DNA of 64,000 bases from Podarcis liolepis (Eukaryota). The notes beneath the pieces were generated by a model. The model made no database searches, was not told the DNA's origin, and saw nothing but the letters and a program-made list of their open reading frames with translations. The position numbers were made by a program, and so were the translations under genes. The stretch lies in NCBI GenBank assembly GCA_965112155.1, contig OZ218102.1. One strand, given 5' to 3'. Shown here piece after piece: positions 66 to 36,656 of this stretch (the first letter of the stretch is position 1; each line of letters starts with the position of its first letter).

Positions 66-200
66 TGTTTATTCATTTTAACAAAATTTATATACTGCTT
101 GATCGTACGAAAAACCTCTAAGCGGTTTGCAAAAGCATAAAACAAAACCTTTAAATGATCAAAACCAATTACAACTTGATTGGGACAGCTTATGTTTAAA
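66..200 (-). mobile_element. L2-type LINE 3' tail fragment
   Basis: The reverse complement of 67-128 (aaaccgcttagaggttttt...caagcagtatataaattttgttaaa) matches the + strand copy at about 59503-59560, which ends in (TAAA)n. Confidence 0.55.
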
Positions 201-633: not shown

Positions 634-1984
634 CGGTTAACCAAATAGATCTGGAAAGGGTTTTTTACACTTTCCAACAGGTGTACAATATTATATGCAC
701 AGCTGGATTGGGCTGTTACTGAGATTTGGGAGAAAAATAATAATGTGCAGATTCATAAATCACACCAAGTCTGGAGACACTTGCATTTTAGATATTACTG
801 AATATTCAGAATGGTATCTTTCTGGGTAGGATTCTTGTAAGGATACTTCTTCCTTTCCCCTCGACTGTCTTTTGCCCATGTCTCAGTGTCATTTACTATG
901 ACTAAAGAAATATATTGTGCAGTACTTCGCTTAATGATTTACAGCCATGCTTAACAGTACCATATTTTGGCTCAGGGAGGAAAAATCTGTGCCCCATCCT
1001 GTTCCCTTTGTTCCCAGCTTTCCATGCCAGGACTAACATCTCCAGCCCTGAAACCCTATGCAGGGTGTAATGAGATGCAAGTCTTCTCTGCACCCATGGT
1101 TACTATTTACTAACAAAACTGATGATGTCAGAAATTTAATTAGGTTGTTTCTTGCAAAGGGATCTTAAACCATGAAATCATTATAGTGTCTAATCTTTTC
1201 TTTGTTTAATTTCTATTCCTACTCCCCTCTCTTTAAAATGAAAGAGAGAGAGAGAGAGAACCCTAAAACACCATTATCTTCTAAGAGAAAAGCAAGAATT
1301 CTCAATGTTTTGCCAGGCATAATATACTAACTGGTTTAAGAGTAATTAACATACACTGCCCCATATACAGCTATTTTTTCATTTTCTAAGCGGCATCAGC
1401 CTATGCTGGCAATGTTGTACTTGAGGGCCATGTCACTGTTTTCATTATAAATCCTTTCTTTGAGGATTTAAATCTTGTCTCTTAAAAAAAGATTGGCTTC
1501 CGGCTACAAAATTTGACATATGGACTTGAGCCAAAGTTGTTAACTGAATTTTCAACAGGAATGCAAAAGAGCCAAAGGATTTTTGGGTTAGATTGTTCTT
1601 TTTTTTCTTTTTTACTTGAAACATGTGAGAGACACCTGTGTCTCTTACATGAAGTAGTCATTTTCTGTTCTGAAGTAATCACTCAGGATAGCAAACAGAC
1701 CCTTGCATGTGTAAGCCTTTCACTGCGGAACATATTGGAAACAGAAAGAAGGCACCAATTACAAAAAGAAAAGTAACAAATAGCCATTGGATCAACCTGC
1801 TGAGAAAGATGGTGGATTGTCCACCTAAAGAGAACAATTTAATTGTTAAGAACATGCATGCATCACAGTTAGGCAGCTTACAGAAACAAGCTTCTCACCA
1901 ACAATCTCTCCACCCCAATAGATTCCAACAAAAGTGGTGGATAAAACCACAACAAATTATATAGATTGTTATAAAGGAAAGAAA

Positions 1985-2183
1985 CTTTCAGATATTCCCT
2001 CCGCTTGAATATTAGACAGGTGCCATCTCCTTCCTCTTTCCACAAACCTTTTAAGTTCAGATCTTTCCCAGTCTGCATCTGTATTGAAATTGTTTTTAAG
2101 ATGTTTTTATTGTTTTATCACTTGTGCATCACCTGGTCTCCTCTGTGAGGAAGGGTGTGATATAAATCTGATAAATAAATAAA
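1985..2183 (+). mobile_element. Decayed L2-type LINE 3' end
   Basis: L2-like 3' UTR layout ending ...gaagggtgtgatataaatctgataaataaataaa. Confidence 0.45.
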
Positions 2184-2784
2184 GATAGGGCAGTATGAAC
2201 GCCCTATAGTATGGAGTTCTACAAGTGATTGCTGCAACGAAGGAACTTTCATGTGTTTGCACCAATAACATATTTCAGATGACCTTAGAACCAGGATACC
2301 GGAAGAATAATCTTCTATATCCGATGCCACCAGGAATCAGTCATTTAGGGAGTGAAAGGCAATAACCCTCACTTTGAATCACATCTGGGAATGTGCCAAT
2401 AGCCAGTAGAATTGATGGAATTGATGGAAAGGAGAAGCATGCTCTAGAAACCTAGCCTCGGCCAGCAGCTTAGCTACATCATTCTACACTAGCAACAGTT
2501 TCTGGATGTAGAGCACGATACAGTAATTCAATCCAGTTTCAGATTGAGCCTTGTGAAATAATACACCAGGAATCTGAGCAGATATTTTAATGTACAGTGG
2601 GATTTGCTTGGGAACAGGGGATCCTTGTGGAAAATCAAATTAACTGGGCTTCCAGGGAAAAGGCAATAAAGAGGTGAGCACCAACAGCTGGGAATAAACA
2701 GGCCACATTTTTTTTATTAGAGGAGCAGGGCATAACATGCAAGCTTTTAAGACCAGTGCAGTGGAAAGGGTAGCTAGAATGCTA

Positions 2785-2943
2785 CGAAGAAGCTAAGCAG
2801 AGCTTTCTAGATCAGGCTGGTGTCCCACCTAATTCAGCATCCTGTTCTCGCCATGGCCAACCAGATGCCCATGGGAAACTCACAAGCACAAGAACACTCT
2901 CCCATCCCATAGTTTCCAGCAACGGGTATTCACAAGCATTGCT
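2785..2943 (-). mobile_element. Old CR1-family 3' fragment (part 1), interrupted by the young CR1
   Basis: agatcaggctggtgtcccacctaattcagcatcctgttctc...ggccaaccagatgcc motif, also seen at about 9230, 18055 and 36560. It resumes after 6197. Confidence 0.6.
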
Positions 2944-3040
2944 ATCATAGAATCATAGAATCATAGAATCATAGAATCATAGAGTTGGAAGAGACCATAA
3001 GGGCCATCGAGTCCAACCCCCTGCCAAGCAGGAAACACCA

Positions 3041-5961
3041 TCAGAGCACCCCTGACATATGGTTGTCAAGCCTCTGCTTAAAGACCTCCAAAGAAGGAGA
3101 CTCCACCACACTCCTTGGCAGCAAATTCCACTGTCGAACAGCTCTTACTGTCAGGAAGTTCTTCCTAATGTTTAGGTGGAATCTTCTTGCTTGTAGTTTG
3201 GATCCATTGCTCCATGTCCGCTTCTCTGGAGCAGCAGAAAACAACCTTTCTCCCTCCTCTATATGACATCCGTTTATATATTTGAACATGGCTATCATAT
3301 CACCCCTTAACCTCCTCTTCTCCAGGCTAAACATGCCCAGCTCCCTTAGCCGTTCCTCATAAGGCATCGTTTCCAGGCCTTTGACCATTTTGGTTGCCCT
3401 CCTCTGGACACGTTCCAGTTTGTCAGTGTCCTTCTTGAACTGTGGTGCCCAGAACTGGACACAGTACTACAGGTGAGGTCTGACCAGAGCAGAATACAGT
3501 GGCACTATTACTTCCCTTGATCTAGATGCTATACTCCTGTTGATGCAGCACAGAATTGCATTGGCTTTTTTAGCTGCCGCGTCACACTGTTGGCTCATGT
3601 CAAGTTTGTGGTCAGCCAAGACTCCTAGATCCTTTTCACATGTACTGCTCTCAAGCCAGGTGTCACCCATCTTGTATTTGTGCCTCTCATTTTTTTTGCC
3701 CAAGTGCAATACTTTACATTTCTCCCTGTTAAAGTTCATCTTGTTTGTTTTGGCCAATTCTCTAATCTGTCAAGGTCGTTTTGAAGTGTGATGCTGTCCT
3801 CTGGGGTGTTAGCCACCCCTCCCAGTTTGGTGTCATCTGCAAATTTGATCAGGATGCCCTTGAGTCCATCATCCAAGTCGTTGATAAAGATGTTGAATAA
3901 GACCAGGCCCAAGACAGAACCCTGTGGCACCCCACTAGTCACTCTTCTCCAGGATGAAGAGGAACCATTGATGAGCACCCTTTGGGTTCGGTCAGTCAGC
4001 CAGTTACAAATCCACTGAGTGGTAGCATAGTCAAGACCGCATTTTACCAGCTTCTTTACAAGAATATCATGGGGCACCTTGTCAAATGCCTTGCTGAAAT
4101 CAAGGTAGGCTACATCCACTGCGTTCCCTTCATCTACCAGGCTTGTAATTCTGTCAAAAAACGAGATCAGGTTAGTCTGACATGACTTATTTTTCAGAAA
4201 TCCATGCTGACTATTGGTGATCACAGCATTCCTTTCTAGGTGCTCACAGACTGTTTTCTTAATGATCTGCTCCAGAATCTTCCCTGGTATTGATGTCAGA
4301 CTGACTGGGCGATAATTATTTAGGTCCTCTCTTTTCCCCTTTTTGAAAATAGGGACAACATTTGCCCTCCTCCAGTCTGCCGGGACTTTGCCTGTTCTCC
4401 AGGAATTCTCAAAGATGACTGCCAGTGGTTCTGAGATCACATCTGCCAGTTCTTTTAATACTCTTGGATGCAGTTCATCTGGCCCTGGAGACTTGAATAC
4501 ATCTAAACTAGCCAAGTATTCTTGTACTATCTCCTTAGTTATTCTGGGCTGTGTTTCCTCTGCTGAATCATTTGCTCCAAATTCTTCAGGTCGGGCATTG
4601 TTTTCTTTATCGGAGAAGACTGAGGCAAAGAAGGCATTGAGGAGTTCAGCCCTTTCTTTGTCCCCTGTTTGCATTTCACCATCTTCTCCTCTGAGTGACC
4701 CCACTGTTTCTTTGTTCTTCCTTTTGCTACGGACATACCCATAAAAGCCTTTTTGGTTGCTTTTAACCTCTCTAGCAAGCCTGAGTTCATTCTGTGCTTT
4801 AGCTTTTCTGACTTTGTGTCTACACGTGCTGGCTATTTGTTTGAATTCCTCTTTGGTGGTTTCCCCCCTTTTCCATTTTTTGTACACATCCTTTTTTAAT
4901 CTTAACTCAGTTAAAAGTTCTTTAGATAGCCACCCTGGCTTCTTTAGGCACCTTCCATGTTTCCGTCTCATTGGTATTGCCTGAAGTTGTGCTTTTACTA
5001 TCTCCCTCTTAACAAACTCCCAGCCATCATGAACTCTCTTTCCTTTTAGTATTACTGTCCATGGGATCTCACCCAGCACTTTCCTAAGTTTTATGAAGTC
5101 GGCTTTTTTAAAGTCAAGAAATTGAGTCCTAGTATGCTTGGCTGCTCCTTTACGCTGTATAGTAAACTTCCGAAGAGCATGATCACTCGCGCCTAATGAT
5201 CCTTCCACTTCTGCCCCACTAACCATGTCATCAACATTTGTTAGGACCAGATCTAAAATGGCTGTTCCTCTTGTTGCTTCTCCCACTTTCTGGACAATGA
5301 AGTTGTCTGCAAGGCCAGTGAGGAATCTGTTTGACCTTATGCTCTTGGCTGAGTTTGACATCCAACAAATATCCGGGTAATTGAAGTCCCCCATTACTAC
5401 TATCTCCCTTCCTTTTGCATGCTTGGCCATCTGTTCCAGGAAGGCATCATCTATGTCCTCCGTTTGGCTTGGGGATCTATAGTAAACTCCCACAATGAGG
5501 TCTCTGTTATTCTTCTCTCCCTTAATTTTGACCCAAATGCTCTCACTTTGGCTTTGAGGTTCTAAATCTTGGATCTCTTCACAGGTATACACATCCCTGA
5601 CATATAATGCCACTCCTCCTCCTTTCTTGTCTGGTCTGTTTCTCTGAAATAGATTGTATCCCTCCATTATTACATTCCAATCGTGGGACTTATCCCACCA
5701 GATTTCAGTGATGCCTATTATGTCATATTTAGTTTGCTGTACCAAGAGCTCAAGCTCATCTTGTTTATTTCCCATGCTTTGCGCATTAGTGTACAGACAT
5801 TGAAGTCCATTAATCATTCCCCCGTGTCTCTTATTTAAGGATTTTTTCCTCCCACCACTAGGTCTGCGTGCTGTTTGCTCCATTTGGTCTATGACATTTG
5901 GATGATCATCTTCATCAATTGATAGACTCCTACCTTCAGGAACACTGTCTCCCTCCCCCAT
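3041..5961 (-). pseudogene. CR1 ORF2 (APE endonuclease + reverse transcriptase), disrupted
   Basis: APE motifs [29 protein letters not shown] motifs [33 protein letters not shown]. Frameshift at about 3755 (LENW|AKTNKM) and in-frame TAG at 3467-3469 (RPHL*YCVQFW). The three ORF-track pieces join into one ORF2. Confidence 0.96.
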
Positions 5962-5966
5962 ATTAG

Positions 5967-6197
5967 TCAGTTTAAAGCCCTCCTGGTGAGGTTTCTGAGA
6001 TTTTTGGCAAAAACATTCCTCCCAACCGTTGTGAGGTGCAGCCCATCGCTTGCCAGAAGTCCATCTTCAAGAAACTGCAGTCCGTGATCTAAGAATCCAA
6101 ACTGTTCCTGTTTACACCATTTGCGAAGCCAGCTGTTCACTTCCACTATTTTTTCCTCTCTCCCTGGGCCACGTCGTTCAAGTGGGAGGACAGATGA
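5967..6197 (-). pseudogene. CR1 ORF1 C-terminal fragment (SGNH esterase-like)
   Basis: Translates [76 protein letters not shown] (TGA 5967-5969). Confidence 0.88.
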
Positions 6198-31299: not shown

Positions 31300-33550
31300 T
31301 GCTCTGATTGCACTAATTATTTACTTTGAAAAAATGACTAGAATTCCTTACCCACTATAAGTTTATGCTCCCAACCCATATACTGATTTGTTGTTTGAGA
31401 TGTGAAAGGACGCAGTTGAACTGACAGTGAGGAAAACTCTATCAGTATTGTGTGGGAGGTATTCAGTTACATAGTGGAATTTTAGGTTTGCACAATTAAA
31501 GTGGATTAAAGCACTCTGGAACTACAAATACACTTTAGAAACATGACTTCTTGGGTTAGGAAAGAGAAATGGACTAAATATTTTTGGAATAAATTATTGA
31601 TTAGTGGGATCACTGATTGAAACTGCTACCTCCCAATCTAGCTAAGAGCCCTGAATTAGGCCTCATCTGCACTCATTATTATACCATGTTAACAGTCACG
31701 GGCAGGTATTTAACTAAGCTTTCCTCAGAGCAGACCCATTGAAATTAATTAACATGACTAGGTTAGGTCCATGATTTCAATAAGCCTACTCTGAGAAAAA
31801 CTTAGTTGAGTATCACCAATGGCTTCTCCCAATGAATCCTGGGAACAGTTAAGGATGCTAAGGGTCATTAGGAGACCTCTACAGTATTCTTTTCACAGAC
31901 CCACAGTTCCCAGAGTTTGAGAATCATAGCCCTGTGAGGAGAATAGGCGTTTCCTTACAACACTTAGCACCCTTAACAAATAAAAGTTCCCAGGTTTCTC
32001 TTAGGGAAGCCATGACTTAAAATCGTGTAAGAGTGCTTTAAATACAACATGCAGATGTAGCCTCAGTGTAACTCATATCTACTAAGTGTAAGCCCAAATC
32101 TTTGCTGTTCATTTCACTATCCTTTCCCTCGCTCCCTGAGCTTGGGAGGCTGCACACCCTAGATCATCAATATTTGTACTATTGCAGGGTTTTAAAAGCA
32201 CACCATGGTTTATGTTATGTGTTGTCAAAGATATATTTGTCATTCATAAAACAAACACTTGTGTATAATGTTAACTCCTATCTAAATGAGATCGACAATG
32301 ATTGAGGCATAGATTAAATGTGTGCCAATTCCAGTTCTCATTTATTCAATGCACACATTAAATCTCCTTGCCGCTACACTGCTGTGCCTAGCTTATTAAA
32401 AGTCTTCTGCTGATCCTTCTGTTACTATGTTATGTGAGTGGAGAAAGATCTTATACAGGATGACAAATAATAGCCTTCCACCTGCAAATTGGGAAACCGT
32501 GGATTTTATATTTCCTCTCTATGGTGTCCTGTGTCTCTATGAAAAAGGTAATGCCATATGCACCCTTGAGCCTGCAGCAGAGGAAATGCTTCTCTCTTCA
32601 TTGGGATGGGGGGGGGAGTATGTGTGTGCTTTTGATTTAGCTCCAGTGGTGGTAGAAGGGGGGAGGCTGTGCGTACTCATCAGGGGGCTTCTTCATATAG
32701 CTAAGAGCCACTGAAATCCAGTATTCTTTGGCCATAGAAATACAGAAACTCCAGGGTGTATTTTGTTTGCTTTGCGGCTTGTATTTCTTTCTCCACTTCG
32801 CCAGTCTTGGATGCAAAGTGGTCCAGCCAAGAGTTTATATCCGCCTGAAATTATTCAGGCTTCTGTTCTCCCCTTTTTGAAGTGTTTGCGAAATGGAGAA
32901 GCAACATTCTTTCTGGTTAAATGTTCCCCAAATGCAGAAAACAAACAAAAGCAGAACAGCTTAGATGCTGAACATGGTGTTCAGTGAAAAGGAAGACTCT
33001 TGGGGAAGTGCATGAAAGACAAGTAGGAATTCATCCCTTAAAAAAGAAAGGCAAGGGGGTGTGGGAAGAATGCAAGAGCTCGCACTTTGACAGAAAGCTG
33101 GCTTCTTTGTAACTGTAAATTGGACAGCGACCTGCCAAAAACATTGGCACAGAGTCTCATTTACAATCTCCTGGCTTTATTGAGGCTTCTCTCCCCTCTG
33201 CCCACAATATCAAACTTCCTCATAACAATTTTTTTAAAAATTTTTTTGCATAACTACACCACAGAACAGTTCAGAAAAAGAGCCTGTATTTGCATCCGGA
33301 ACCTGGATTCCAAGTAAGTTAGACTAAGGTTCTTCTTGCAATCCTATCATATGGGCTGCAACAGATTTACTACATGTGCAAGAACAGAATTTGTGTACCA
33401 TTTTCCAGCATCACTATTCATCAGCTGCATTTATACAACTGTCTCTGTTTAATAGGCAGAGATATCAACAAGGTTTTTGCCCATGCATGGAGGCCTTCTC
33501 CCTTTGTGGCATAAGCCATCAAACCAGTAAGCTTCAAACATAGCTTCTCA

Positions 33551-33682
33551 TTTCATCTGAACCCAGAAACTATGGTTAATGGCTTTTGGAACAAGCCAGG
33601 ATCTTAAACCAACTTCAGACCGTAGCTTAAGAATCTGACTTGTTCCAAATCCACTAACCATAGTTTCTGGGCTCAGGTGAAA
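33551..33682. repeat. Fold-back inverted repeat, about 57-bp arms (probable MITE core)
   Basis: TTTCATCTGAACCCAGAAACTATGGTTA... pairs with ...TAACCATAGTTTCTGGGCTCAGGTGAAA. Confidence 0.85.
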
Positions 33683-34427
33683 GGAGGAGTTATGGTTAAC
33701 GAGAGACTTCAAAATGTCATTCCAGCACACAGTGAAGTGAGCACAGAAAGGGTTAATAAACTGTTCTCAATTCAGTTTATTAAGTCAAAGTATGATCATC
33801 CAAACTTAGCCATTGTGTTCTCTTCTCTATTCAAGAGAGGATGGCCAAAGGCACCTGGAAAAATGCAATTAAAACTGAATTACTTAGAGATTTCAAATGT
33901 TTGCATTTTAATCTTATGCTTGGGTGCAGTATTAATTAGGCAACAAACACCACCTTTATGCAGGCTTAGCTTTCCCCCCCCCAAAAAAAATATATATACA
34001 AAAAAGCAACATTATAAGCCCTAAGCATCCCTTGTAGGCAGGGAGCTAATGGAGGTTAACAAAGCTCTGCCAGATTTTCAGCAGGCCAGCAGAACAGAAT
34101 AAATCAAGATGAAAGGCCTACTAATCCTTCCACATATGTGACAGTAAATCAGGGACAATTCCATAAAAGTAAGATGAGGGTTTTCTCCCATGATGTATGC
34201 TTCATCACCTGCTCTTTCAGGATAAGTATGTGAGACAACATCAGCACCATTAAGAAGACTCTCATCAGCTACTGCCTAGCAATTCATGTTTAAGTCTCAT
34301 TTTCTGAAAAGCTTAACACTATAGGACATTAAGCTTAACCTCTCTTAACACTAAAGAGAGATAGAGATAGCAAACCTGAAGGTTGCCACCTGCTCTCCAA
34401 TAGATCCTGCTCCCCAATAGATCCTAC

Positions 34428-34685: not shown

Positions 34686-35036
34686 GGTCCTACCACTGTC
34701 ATGACTCTCATGATGGGGGCTAATGGGCCACTTCAAACAGTCGTGCCAGCCTAATCTGGACTACAGGTTCACCACTCCTAGTACAGACATACTGAGCTAG
34801 GGCTCATCCAGATGTCCTTAGATTCATCCTGCTTTGCTGGCACAAAGCTTACATGGAGGTTAGATACTATCTCATCTTCAATGAGCATTCACTCTGTTTT
34901 GTTTGTGGGGAGTTACACAGCAATGAGCATTCATCCTGACCAGATATATTCTAATGCTTCTACATTTCAGAGTAGTCGAAACAAAATAAAAAAAATCCTT
35001 CCAGTAGCACCTTAGAGACCAACTAAGTTTGTTATT

Positions 35037-35076
35037 GGTATGAGCTTTTGTGTGCATACACACTTCTTCAGATACC
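35037..35076 (-). ncRNA. Minimal hammerhead ribozyme motif, G12-to-A mutated (probably inactive)
   Basis: The minus strand reads GGUAU-CUGAAGA-A-GUGUG(UAUG)CACAC-AAAA-GCUC-AUACC; GAAA has become AAAA. Confidence 0.65.
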
Positions 35077-35095
35077 AGATACTTCTTCAGATTCA

Positions 35096-35135
35096 GGTAT
35101 CTGAAGAAGTGTGCATGTACACGAAAGCTCATACC
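35096..35135 (+). ncRNA. Minimal type I hammerhead ribozyme motif (core intact)
   Basis: GGUAU-CUGAAGA-A-GUGUG(CAUG)UACAC-GAAA-GC-UC-AUACC: stem I GGUAU/AUACC, stem II 5 bp with one G-U, palindromic AGCU mini stem III, predicted cleavage after C35130. Confidence 0.75.
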
Positions 35136-36656
35136 AATAACAAACTTACCAGTTGGTCTCTAAGGTGCTACTGGAAGAATTTTTTTTATTTTGTTTTGAC
35201 TATGGCAGACCAACACGACTACCTACCTATTTCAGAGTAGGTGAGTCTTGCCTTACATAAGGCAATTGACCTCTGTGTCCACTCTTCCTTATCCCAAGGT
35301 AATTCCAGTTTAGTTGCTCACTGGAAACTTTGCCTTCTACCCAGGAGCTTCCCAGTCTAAATCCTGGCTAGTTCCTAGAGATGGAAGCTCCTCATTCAAT
35401 TTCTCTCATTGATAGCTAGCAGCTTGGTCTTTCCCCCTCACTTGCTCCCACCTTTACCCATGTTTCTTGGTGACTCTGCTCTGGTGCACATGACTTTATG
35501 CTTTATCTTTATGTATCCTCCCACCTCATCTTTATTTCTTCAACCACCCACCTCCCACAGCAGTCTAATTTCCCATTTTGCCCCTTATCTTGGGAGAAGC
35601 CTACTAGAGCTAGTCCGGCTTAGCCATGGGACACCCCCCCCCAAAAAAAAAAATGCCCTCAACCTTTTCTTGTTCACATTTGAATGAAAGGTAGGCTTTA
35701 AAATAGTCTTTCGGAAAGCTGGTCTTTAGCATTGCATTTCAAAACATTAATTTTAGGAGCAGGAGAGTGAATGCCATCATCGTAATGAAACCAGGCGAGC
35801 TAAAACATTGAGCTTTCTTTGTCTGAGCCCTTGCCTGACCCATTGGAACACTCCCTGGGATGTCATCATACTCTGGTGAAAGAACTATTTGCCTGCAATT
35901 GTAATTCATAGATTATGTTTAAGTAGATGAACCACAGACTAATCCAACAATCATCTTCCTGCCAAGAAGATTAAGGCTTTCCTATATACTCTGTAAATCA
36001 AATTGAATATTGGCTCCTGTTACTGATGTTTGTTTAATTACGAATATCGTCAGAACGCATGTGGAATATCTCAAAAATCTCTAAGATGCAAGGGGCAGAT
36101 CATAGCTAATGGGCTGCTGTAGGGGAAGGCTCCAAGTGCTGGATCAGTGACAGCACTAGGTCCAATTGGTGTTATTAAAAGAACACAAAACTAAATGGGT
36201 TCCAGATTAAAACCTTGGGGATTTTTCTAAGTGTGCTTAGGATCAGAAAATGTAAGGCAATGGCACATTCCAAAGGAACTGTGGCCTAAGGATGCAGTCC
36301 ACAAACCACATCCTTTGGGATAATGCTGTATACTTTAATGAAAGTATTCCGCAGTAAAACTTGGTTGATTGCAAGCCTTCCAGATGTTTTATAAAGGGGA
36401 CCAATTTAGGAAGTGTTGTCTTTGCTCCAAACATACTTTTCTCTCTCTGCCTCTACCTATTTCTCCTAGTAGTCACCTCCTGCCCTTTAGCTCTTTGTTT
36501 CCACTGTATTCAGCCCCAACCCAGACACTTAAGACTTCTGGTTTCACATATACATTCAACATAAGAACATAAGAGCCTGCTGGATCAGGTAAATGGCACA
36601 TTTAATCCAGAATCCTGTCCTCACAGCGACCAACTGGGTGCCTGCAGGCTTCCAAT

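Follow-up and report, generated by a model that had tools for sequence, protein, structure and literature searches.

We consider it probable that the fold-back at 34964-35240 of the window (the whole 64-kb stretch of DNA that was analysed) represents two pseudo-LTR (pLTR) copies joined head to head, both nicked target strands having each primed a cDNA, and that it is likely inert today. The parts of this reading differ in firmness. The insertion is almost certainly a Penelope-like element (PLE), the stub is very likely inert, and two-ended priming, both cDNAs running off where the transcript begins, is the likely route by which its arms were made. The reading is built on the identity of the family, the parent ORF, the copy number, the single tail of each insertion, the target-site duplication, the templated spacer and decay at the neutral rate, all of which were demonstrated.

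Anatomy of the stub and its hammerhead layouts

The stub was resolved into the following features.

34964..34975, + strand: left copy of the 12-bp target-site duplication, sharing its final 3-4 nt with the inverted arm's end (microhomology)
34972..35075, - strand: tail-less arm, covering pLTR +1 to about +104 (numbered from the G of GTATCTGA); 96% identical to one family copy
35037..35076, - strand: minimal type I hammerhead layout with G12>A at 35049 (CpG decay), predicted dead
35076..35096, no strand: junction spacer of 21 nt, unique to the locus; both "extra" G and a third partial copy (35081-35092) lie inside it
35096..35135, + strand: minimal type I hammerhead layout in which the 12 core bases are complete, with a predicted cut 3' of C35130 and a palindromic AGCU replacing stem III
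35097..35228, + strand: tail-bearing arm, covering pLTR +1 to about +129 and interrupted by 3 inserted nt at 35149-35151
35203..35228, + strand: one-sided tail; tails of this kind are described in PMC8557442, PMC3846280 and PMC11167929
35229..35240, + strand: right copy of the 12-bp target-site duplication

The arms at 34972/3-35075 and 35097-35202 form an inverted repeat with six differences in 104 positions, one of them at the outer edge, in addition to the 3-nt insertion. An earlier note on this DNA had described a near-perfect inverted repeat of 230 bp between 12-bp direct repeats. The near-perfect pairing is real, but the 230 bp take in both arms, which pair over about 104 bp. The direct repeats were likewise confirmed, but their placement is not symmetric, as the left copy has 3-4 nt in common with the - arm and the right copy stands 26 nt from the + arm. 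These 26 nt, found on the + arm side only, are the tail, and comparison with the parent element identified it as the stretch that leads into the parent ORF. Both a one-ended tail of 30-40 bp and a target-site duplication are features of endonuclease-bearing PLEs; at the window stub the arms end at +104 and +129 and the duplication is 12 bp. The stub contains no ORF. Three things had escaped the first description: the one-sided 26-nt tail, the origin of the spacer wholly from the arm's end, and the fifth pair that the junction adds to stem I.

In the + hammerhead, C3-A9 was placed at 35101-35107, the extra A at 35108, stem II (with a C>T at 35118) at 35109-35122, G12-A15.1 at 35123-35126 and UC at 35129-35130. 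This copy has everything expected of a PLE minimal type I hammerhead (a CUGANGA / GAAA / UH core, helices I and II, an extra base after A9 and a palindromic 15.2-16.2), and the - copy departs from it at G12. The claims that the + copy keeps all core nucleotides, that the - copy lost G12 by a CpG-type transition and that a third partial copy lies in the spacer were thus correct. Stem I had been given as GGUAU-AUACC; the type I layout stands, but the stem of the family is GUAU/AUAC (4 bp) preceded by T, and the first G is junction on both arms. The fifth stem-I pair at the window is therefore junction sequence, whatever the source of the extra G. The extra A after A9, for which the CChMVd viroid had been cited as the parallel, is described for PLE minimal hammerheads generally (PMC4209133) and not for the viroid only.

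A hammerhead pattern scan of both strands of the 64-kb window gave two matches, one of which was the + layout. The other, at 33424 on the - strand, is a weak CTGATGA ... GAAA with short stems and is likely due to chance. The covariance-model check that had been proposed found no Rfam hammerhead family among 26 matches at E<=10; all were under the gathering score and most were generic microRNA hairpins, for which reason a microRNA identity was rejected. The fold-back RNA was predicted to be very stable (-174.4 kcal/mol, z=-25.5), and none of 200 shuffles was equally stable. In the arm alone, the hammerhead stems had predicted pairing probabilities of 0.7-1.0, and in the whole fold-back transcript of 0.00, so that the proposed sequestering of the ribozyme by a long dsRNA stem is borne out as a prediction.

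The parent element and the decay of its copies

The family was characterized in the 1.57-Gb assembly, in which the 24-nt hammerhead start has 12,987 exact matches, 10,055 of them after T and 2,932 after another base. In long copies the end of an ORF lies upstream, and a protein search of the genome yielded open frames 910 and 921 aa long. The copy designated L150 (G000:C8:51195300-51203500) is an intact-looking PLE with a 910-aa ORF at 1129-3861 on the - strand. Its Pfam matches to RVT_1 (47 bits, 438-586) and GIY-YIG (24.6 bits, 808-855) were both above cut-off; short endonuclease fragments of the family gave blank results or scores under the cut-off, which the full ORF passed. L150 therefore has the single ORF with RT and C-terminal GIY-YIG that is typical of endonuclease-bearing PLEs. 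It also has their partial-tandem pLTRs (805-2700 matches 3824-5719) and adjacent inverted 5'-truncated copy, which is tail-less and reaches 7453. Since the tandem repeats are 100% identical, the family was active recently; L149, L152, L153 and L154 are young copies resembling L150. The arms of the window are 87-90% identical to young pLTRs of the L150 type, and 92-96% identical to a copy of an older subfamily. As pLTRs of this type flank the ORF with RT and GIY-YIG, the origin from Penelope-like pseudo-LTRs with a minimal type I hammerhead, as first proposed, was upheld.

Read directly, the L150 translation has a CX4CxxC linker before the GIY-YIG stretch. An RT-endonuclease linker of the form CX2-5CxxC belongs to Neptune and is shared with Nematis and Naiad (PMC8557442), and by this linker the parent would be of the Neptune type. 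The nearest named homologues of the parent protein were unannotated turtle proteins with 65-69% identity, which makes a reptile host probable. Among turtle gene models, four (P0012-P0014 and P0026) have the PLE RT region fused to KRAB zinc-finger or DnaJ proteins, by either annotation artefact or exonisation.

The dinucleotide C11.1-G12 was CG in 82 of 115 arms, CA in 15, TG in 13 and otherwise in 5. G12A or its sister CpG change is thus present in 28 of the 115, and the G12A of the window is ordinary CpG decay. All 12 core bases are kept in 44 of the 59 arms that span the motif. The earlier note had set the conservation of core positions above their flanks as a point on which its reading would stand or fall. 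The core was not better kept: non-CpG mismatches amounted to 24/994 (2.4%) in the core and 108/3702 (2.9%) in the flanks (p=0.45, after 9 CpG or subfamily flank sites were dropped). A first result of p=0.004 was rejected because the flanks then held subfamily sites. Selection on the core was not found among the copies, which decay neutrally. Non-CpG sites with a common second allele lie solely outside the hammerhead, and their avoidance of it hints at selection in the source lineage.

That RNA from the locus might itself have a role was considered next to these data: transcribed, its long stem would silence the ribozyme and make the RNA a functional ADAR or Dicer substrate. Neither hammerhead fold is predicted to survive the stem, family RNA exists (1,546 reads on the repeats in about 12% of one run from organism C, a related organism), and among about 1,000 such hairpins some should be intronic. 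This reading is nevertheless highly improbable. In the same portion of that run no read fell on the unique flanks of the stub, and 96% of the reads continue into unlike sequence and therefore come from other copies. No RNA entry was among the sequence records listed as containing the window stretch. Compared with the family majority, the changes in both window arms are all C>T or G>A, bar one A/T site in a T tract, and none is A>G. The core is not spared relative to its flanks, and no Rfam family reached its gathering score. The transcription of the locus assumed in the earlier note thus found no support in the reads covered.

The contigs of organisms B and C continue from the flanks into the element, and the insertion therefore probably predates the split of these organisms. 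The left junction was bridged by 37 nt in organism C and the others by 19-30 nt, under the 31-nt threshold; the joints listed included no empty site. No host gene was found in the window in the 10 of 28 long frames scanned, which gave one LINE match; short exons would escape such a scan. A 776-aa frame at 3736-6066 on the - strand has apurinic-type endonuclease and RT domains and is a LINE ORF2. An older, imperfect palindrome of a different repeat family (79% self-match) lies at 33536-33697, 1.3 kb upstream of the stub. Its family comprises 126 first-look candidates at 67-88% identity, many of them also palindromic, and is possibly MITE-like; the pattern scan found no hammerhead layout in this palindrome.

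Sister stubs and the joining of two arms

Double-hammerhead junctions, defined as two hammerhead starts head to head and at most 30 nt apart, gave 1,125 pattern matches in the genome, the window stub among them, and none in the control. As 2 of the first 50 plus-strand matches were nested, these correspond to about 1,080 loci. With this number, and with CpG loss at the G12 position in 28 of 115 arms, a special status or a role of this fold-back was not supported. Two samples were analysed. Sample 1 comprised the first 100 of 1,838 matches to a motif outside the hammerhead, of which 82 loci and 133 arms were kept, and sample 2 comprised 48 double-hammerhead loci. Left out before counting were L037, L040, L049 and L059, which overlap other loci, L113, whose sequence is that of L112, and the 2 nested matches, and the first 30 loci, ranked by likeness to the window, were excluded from all counts bar L004. 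L112 and L113 (G000:C1:49.33 and 49.39 Mb) have identical matches and offsets 61 kb apart and represent a local duplication or an assembly duplicate.

The arms have two 3' ends. In sample 1, 71 of 133 ended at +78..106 (near +95), 60 at +125 or more (near +135) and 2 elsewhere. Among its 37 close head-to-head pairs, 33 joined a tail-bearing to a tail-less arm, 4 were scored tail-less on both arms and none had two tails; in sample 2, 47 of 48 loci were tail/tail-less and none was tailed on both arms. Target-site duplications of at least 7 nt were present in 33/33 and 46/48 loci of samples 1 and 2, respectively, against 7-8% in mismatched flanks, with a modal length of 12-13 nt. At the 5' end, the tail-less arm extended further in 18 of the 33 pairs (by more than 200 nt in two), the tail arm in 8 and neither in 7. 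A simple fold-back of a tail-bearing cDNA was rejected on account of these 18 pairs, since the copy that a folded cDNA makes of itself could not hold a tail absent from its template; they could arise, however, from a hairpin that a staggered cut trims afterwards.

Such a hairpin is the main alternative. In the self-priming account (PMC3846280), the inverted arm is made by a hairpin on the antisense template, and in PMC8557442 the tail originates when the endonuclease resolves it; a staggered cut would leave the tail on one side. Each insertion would then have exactly one tail, and a tail-less arm reaching further 5' is permitted. Young copies have arms without differences (median identity 100% in the first 75 nt), and variants are shared, as self-priming would have it: subfamily variants agreed within 31/31 and 30/31 pairs, and private variants were common to both arms in L117, L120 and L123. 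At a third variant site 21 of 32 pairs were concordant, with 63% expected, and site +81 was rejected as a mark of a shared template since it sits in a slipping A/T tract. Sharing of variants is, however, predicted equally by a hairpin intermediate and by two copies of one source RNA. In L074, L075 and L106, the palindromic stem II lies in a 13-16-nt overlap of the arms, which annealing of identical single strands at this place would produce.

The spacers also bear on self-priming, as pieces of the fold-back type are common in them. The 21 nt of the window spacer can be assembled completely from pieces, 4 nt or longer, of the 5' end of the arm itself, and in the sister spacers of the 48 loci 374 of 419 nt are templated, against 41% in shuffles. 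This pattern looks like repeated short fold-back synthesis before joining, for which synthesis-dependent microhomology end joining (PMC5728401) is a parallel. In L120 and L121, however, foreign or internal pieces stand between two complete arms, which self-priming leaves unexplained. The window spacer has one match in the genome at up to 2 mismatches, and 44 of the 48 sister spacers are distinct. Each stub therefore arises afresh with its insertion, and the stubs do not constitute a self-copying family; copying of the junction or of a tandem as a unit, as in a MITE-like or retrozyme family, was not observed.

Further data concerned where the arms start. In sample 1, 41 of 131 classed arms began between -3 and +5. 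Genome-wide, a foreign base stood before +1 in the 2,932 arms counted above and before +5 in 357. In hand counts among the matches listed, the base preceding the arm was G in 62/100 at +1 and 14/100 at +5 (p=2e-12). The extra G was present in 11/21 double-hammerhead loci at +1, several within templated pieces, and in 5/31 at the second start, 2 nt upstream. A subfamily variant "GG" was rejected as its source, as none of 12 further loci had element sequence more than 5 nt upstream of its GG arm; the G may come from joining instead of from a cap. A TATA motif lies at -31/-33 in L012 (older) and at -35 in L150 (younger), and a pyrimidine tract and CAG directly precede the hammerhead. From these positions we infer that transcription of the family RNA would start at -2..+1. 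In the same portion of the organism C run, no pile of read ends (starts or ends of many molecules) was seen.

The sequence before +1 also resembles a 3' splice site, and the pile-up of 5' ends could then be a splice junction, with arms copied from spliced RNA, as at the D. virilis intron (PMC4209133). This is very unlikely. A spliced copy would keep the T after CAG, which the 2,932 arms do not have; 96 arm ends showed no common exon sequence before the arms; and reads of organism C continue, unspliced, into the pLTR upstream (95 and 213 loose ends).

A start at +1 might matter to the ribozyme. In L012, a short inverted repeat pairs the pLTR 25 nt upstream with the first core bases of the hammerhead, a predicted block in read-through RNA. 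In folding predictions, 25 nt of natural upstream sequence lowered the pairing probability of stem I to 0.01 from 0.88, and a 136-nt downstream context also lowered it, to 0.09. By this prediction the upstream pLTR would mask the hammerhead when RNA reads through and not when it starts at +1, an effect that depends on context and is only a lead.

In view of the arm stops at the sense-strand start behind the TATA box, in either or both arms, which self-priming leaves unexplained, and of the explanation of the tail in PMC11167929 by a pair of RT start sites seen in vitro, the self-priming hairpin is considered unlikely, and two-ended priming is preferred. For the latter, the following steps are proposed. 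The element RNA would begin just before the hammerhead, 31-35 nt behind the TATA box, and the element protein would nick both target strands about 12 nt apart. One nick would prime at the tail end (about +135) and the other at the T-rich tail start (about +95). Both cDNAs would run off the RNA 5' end, often adding one C (a cap copy or untemplated). The resulting identical single-stranded ends, unable to pair directly, would be joined after short rounds of fold-back synthesis, giving the spacer. The hammerhead would be present in the stub because it forms the first 40 nt of the element RNA, and it would matter to the parent rather than to the stub. As an in vitro parallel from another clade, the Poseidon protein of the anole was seen to nick both strands, to extend both, and to initiate at two internal sites delimiting the tail (PMC11167929). 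A more specific version of two-ended priming, to which we give an even chance, has a fixed split of labour: a dimeric RNP would devote one subunit to each RT start site (hence one tail), strong-stop-like cDNAs made from the 5' pLTR copy would run off the capped start at hammerhead base 1, and synthesis-dependent end joining would follow.

Relation to known systems

Inverted-pLTR insertions of endonuclease-bearing PLEs are known from Pen2a_Av (PMC3846280) and from the legend of Fig. 2 of PMC8557442. As described there, they share with the window stub a head-to-head inverted pLTR, a one-sided tail of 30-40 bp, a target duplication, and TATA and Inr-like motifs; unlike them, the window arms are only about 100-130 nt long and no ORF is left. 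The layout of the stub is already published, and the locus is ordinary, one decaying copy among about 1,000.

The Anolis carolinensis Poseidon element PAc, so far as described in the accessible text of PMC11167929, resembles the window family in that two internal RT start sites bound a tail overlapping the ORF start, and in that the hammerhead lies in the pLTR and no RNA-seq ends fall at the cut site. The clades differ, PAc belonging to Penelope/Poseidon and the window family having the linker of Neptune/Nematis, and the ORF of PAc starts inside the hammerhead whereas that of the window family starts about 100-140 nt after it. Inverted insertions are not treated in that text, where the sole "inverted" is a 3' blocking dT.

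The hammerheads themselves match the metazoan PLE minimal hammerheads of PMC4209133 in a helix I of 4-5 bp, a long helix II, an unpaired base between 9 and 10.1, G10.1-C11.1 and the palindromic 15.2-16.2. Reptile families are reported there, as are dual minimal hammerheads about 100-700 bp apart on opposite strands; the window motifs, in contrast, are only 21 nt apart. According to the same source, a single minimal hammerhead showed no cleavage and dimers had low activity. Being on opposite strands, the window motifs cannot form the same-strand dimer that is needed by this type of ribozyme.

In LINE-1 twin priming, each of the two cDNAs corresponds to a different part of the RNA. At the window stub, by contrast, both would correspond to the same part, and a palindrome results. 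The likeness to twin priming, as summarised in PMC4859970, is that both target strands prime and an inversion with a scarred joint is produced. Animal non-LTR retrozymes (10.64898/2026.07.22.740005) are described as non-coding, PLE-derived and hammerhead-bearing, as is the window stub; unlike these head-to-tail tandems, the stub is head to head and its junction is not propagated.

Among the titles and abstract openings searched, which covered few subscription papers, no two-ended priming model for PLEs was found. The formation of inverted PLE ends is unsettled in the sources at hand, being attributed to self-priming (PMC3846280) and to endonuclease resolution (PMC8557442), with steps "yet to be validated" according to PMC11167929. 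The stub population is useful here, as recently active copies and 1,125 junctions make predictions countable: one tail per insertion, a stagger of 12-13 nt and 5' ends at -2..+1. If the reading with a fixed split of labour is true, the approximately 1,000 stubs would record an unsolved step of Penelope integration.
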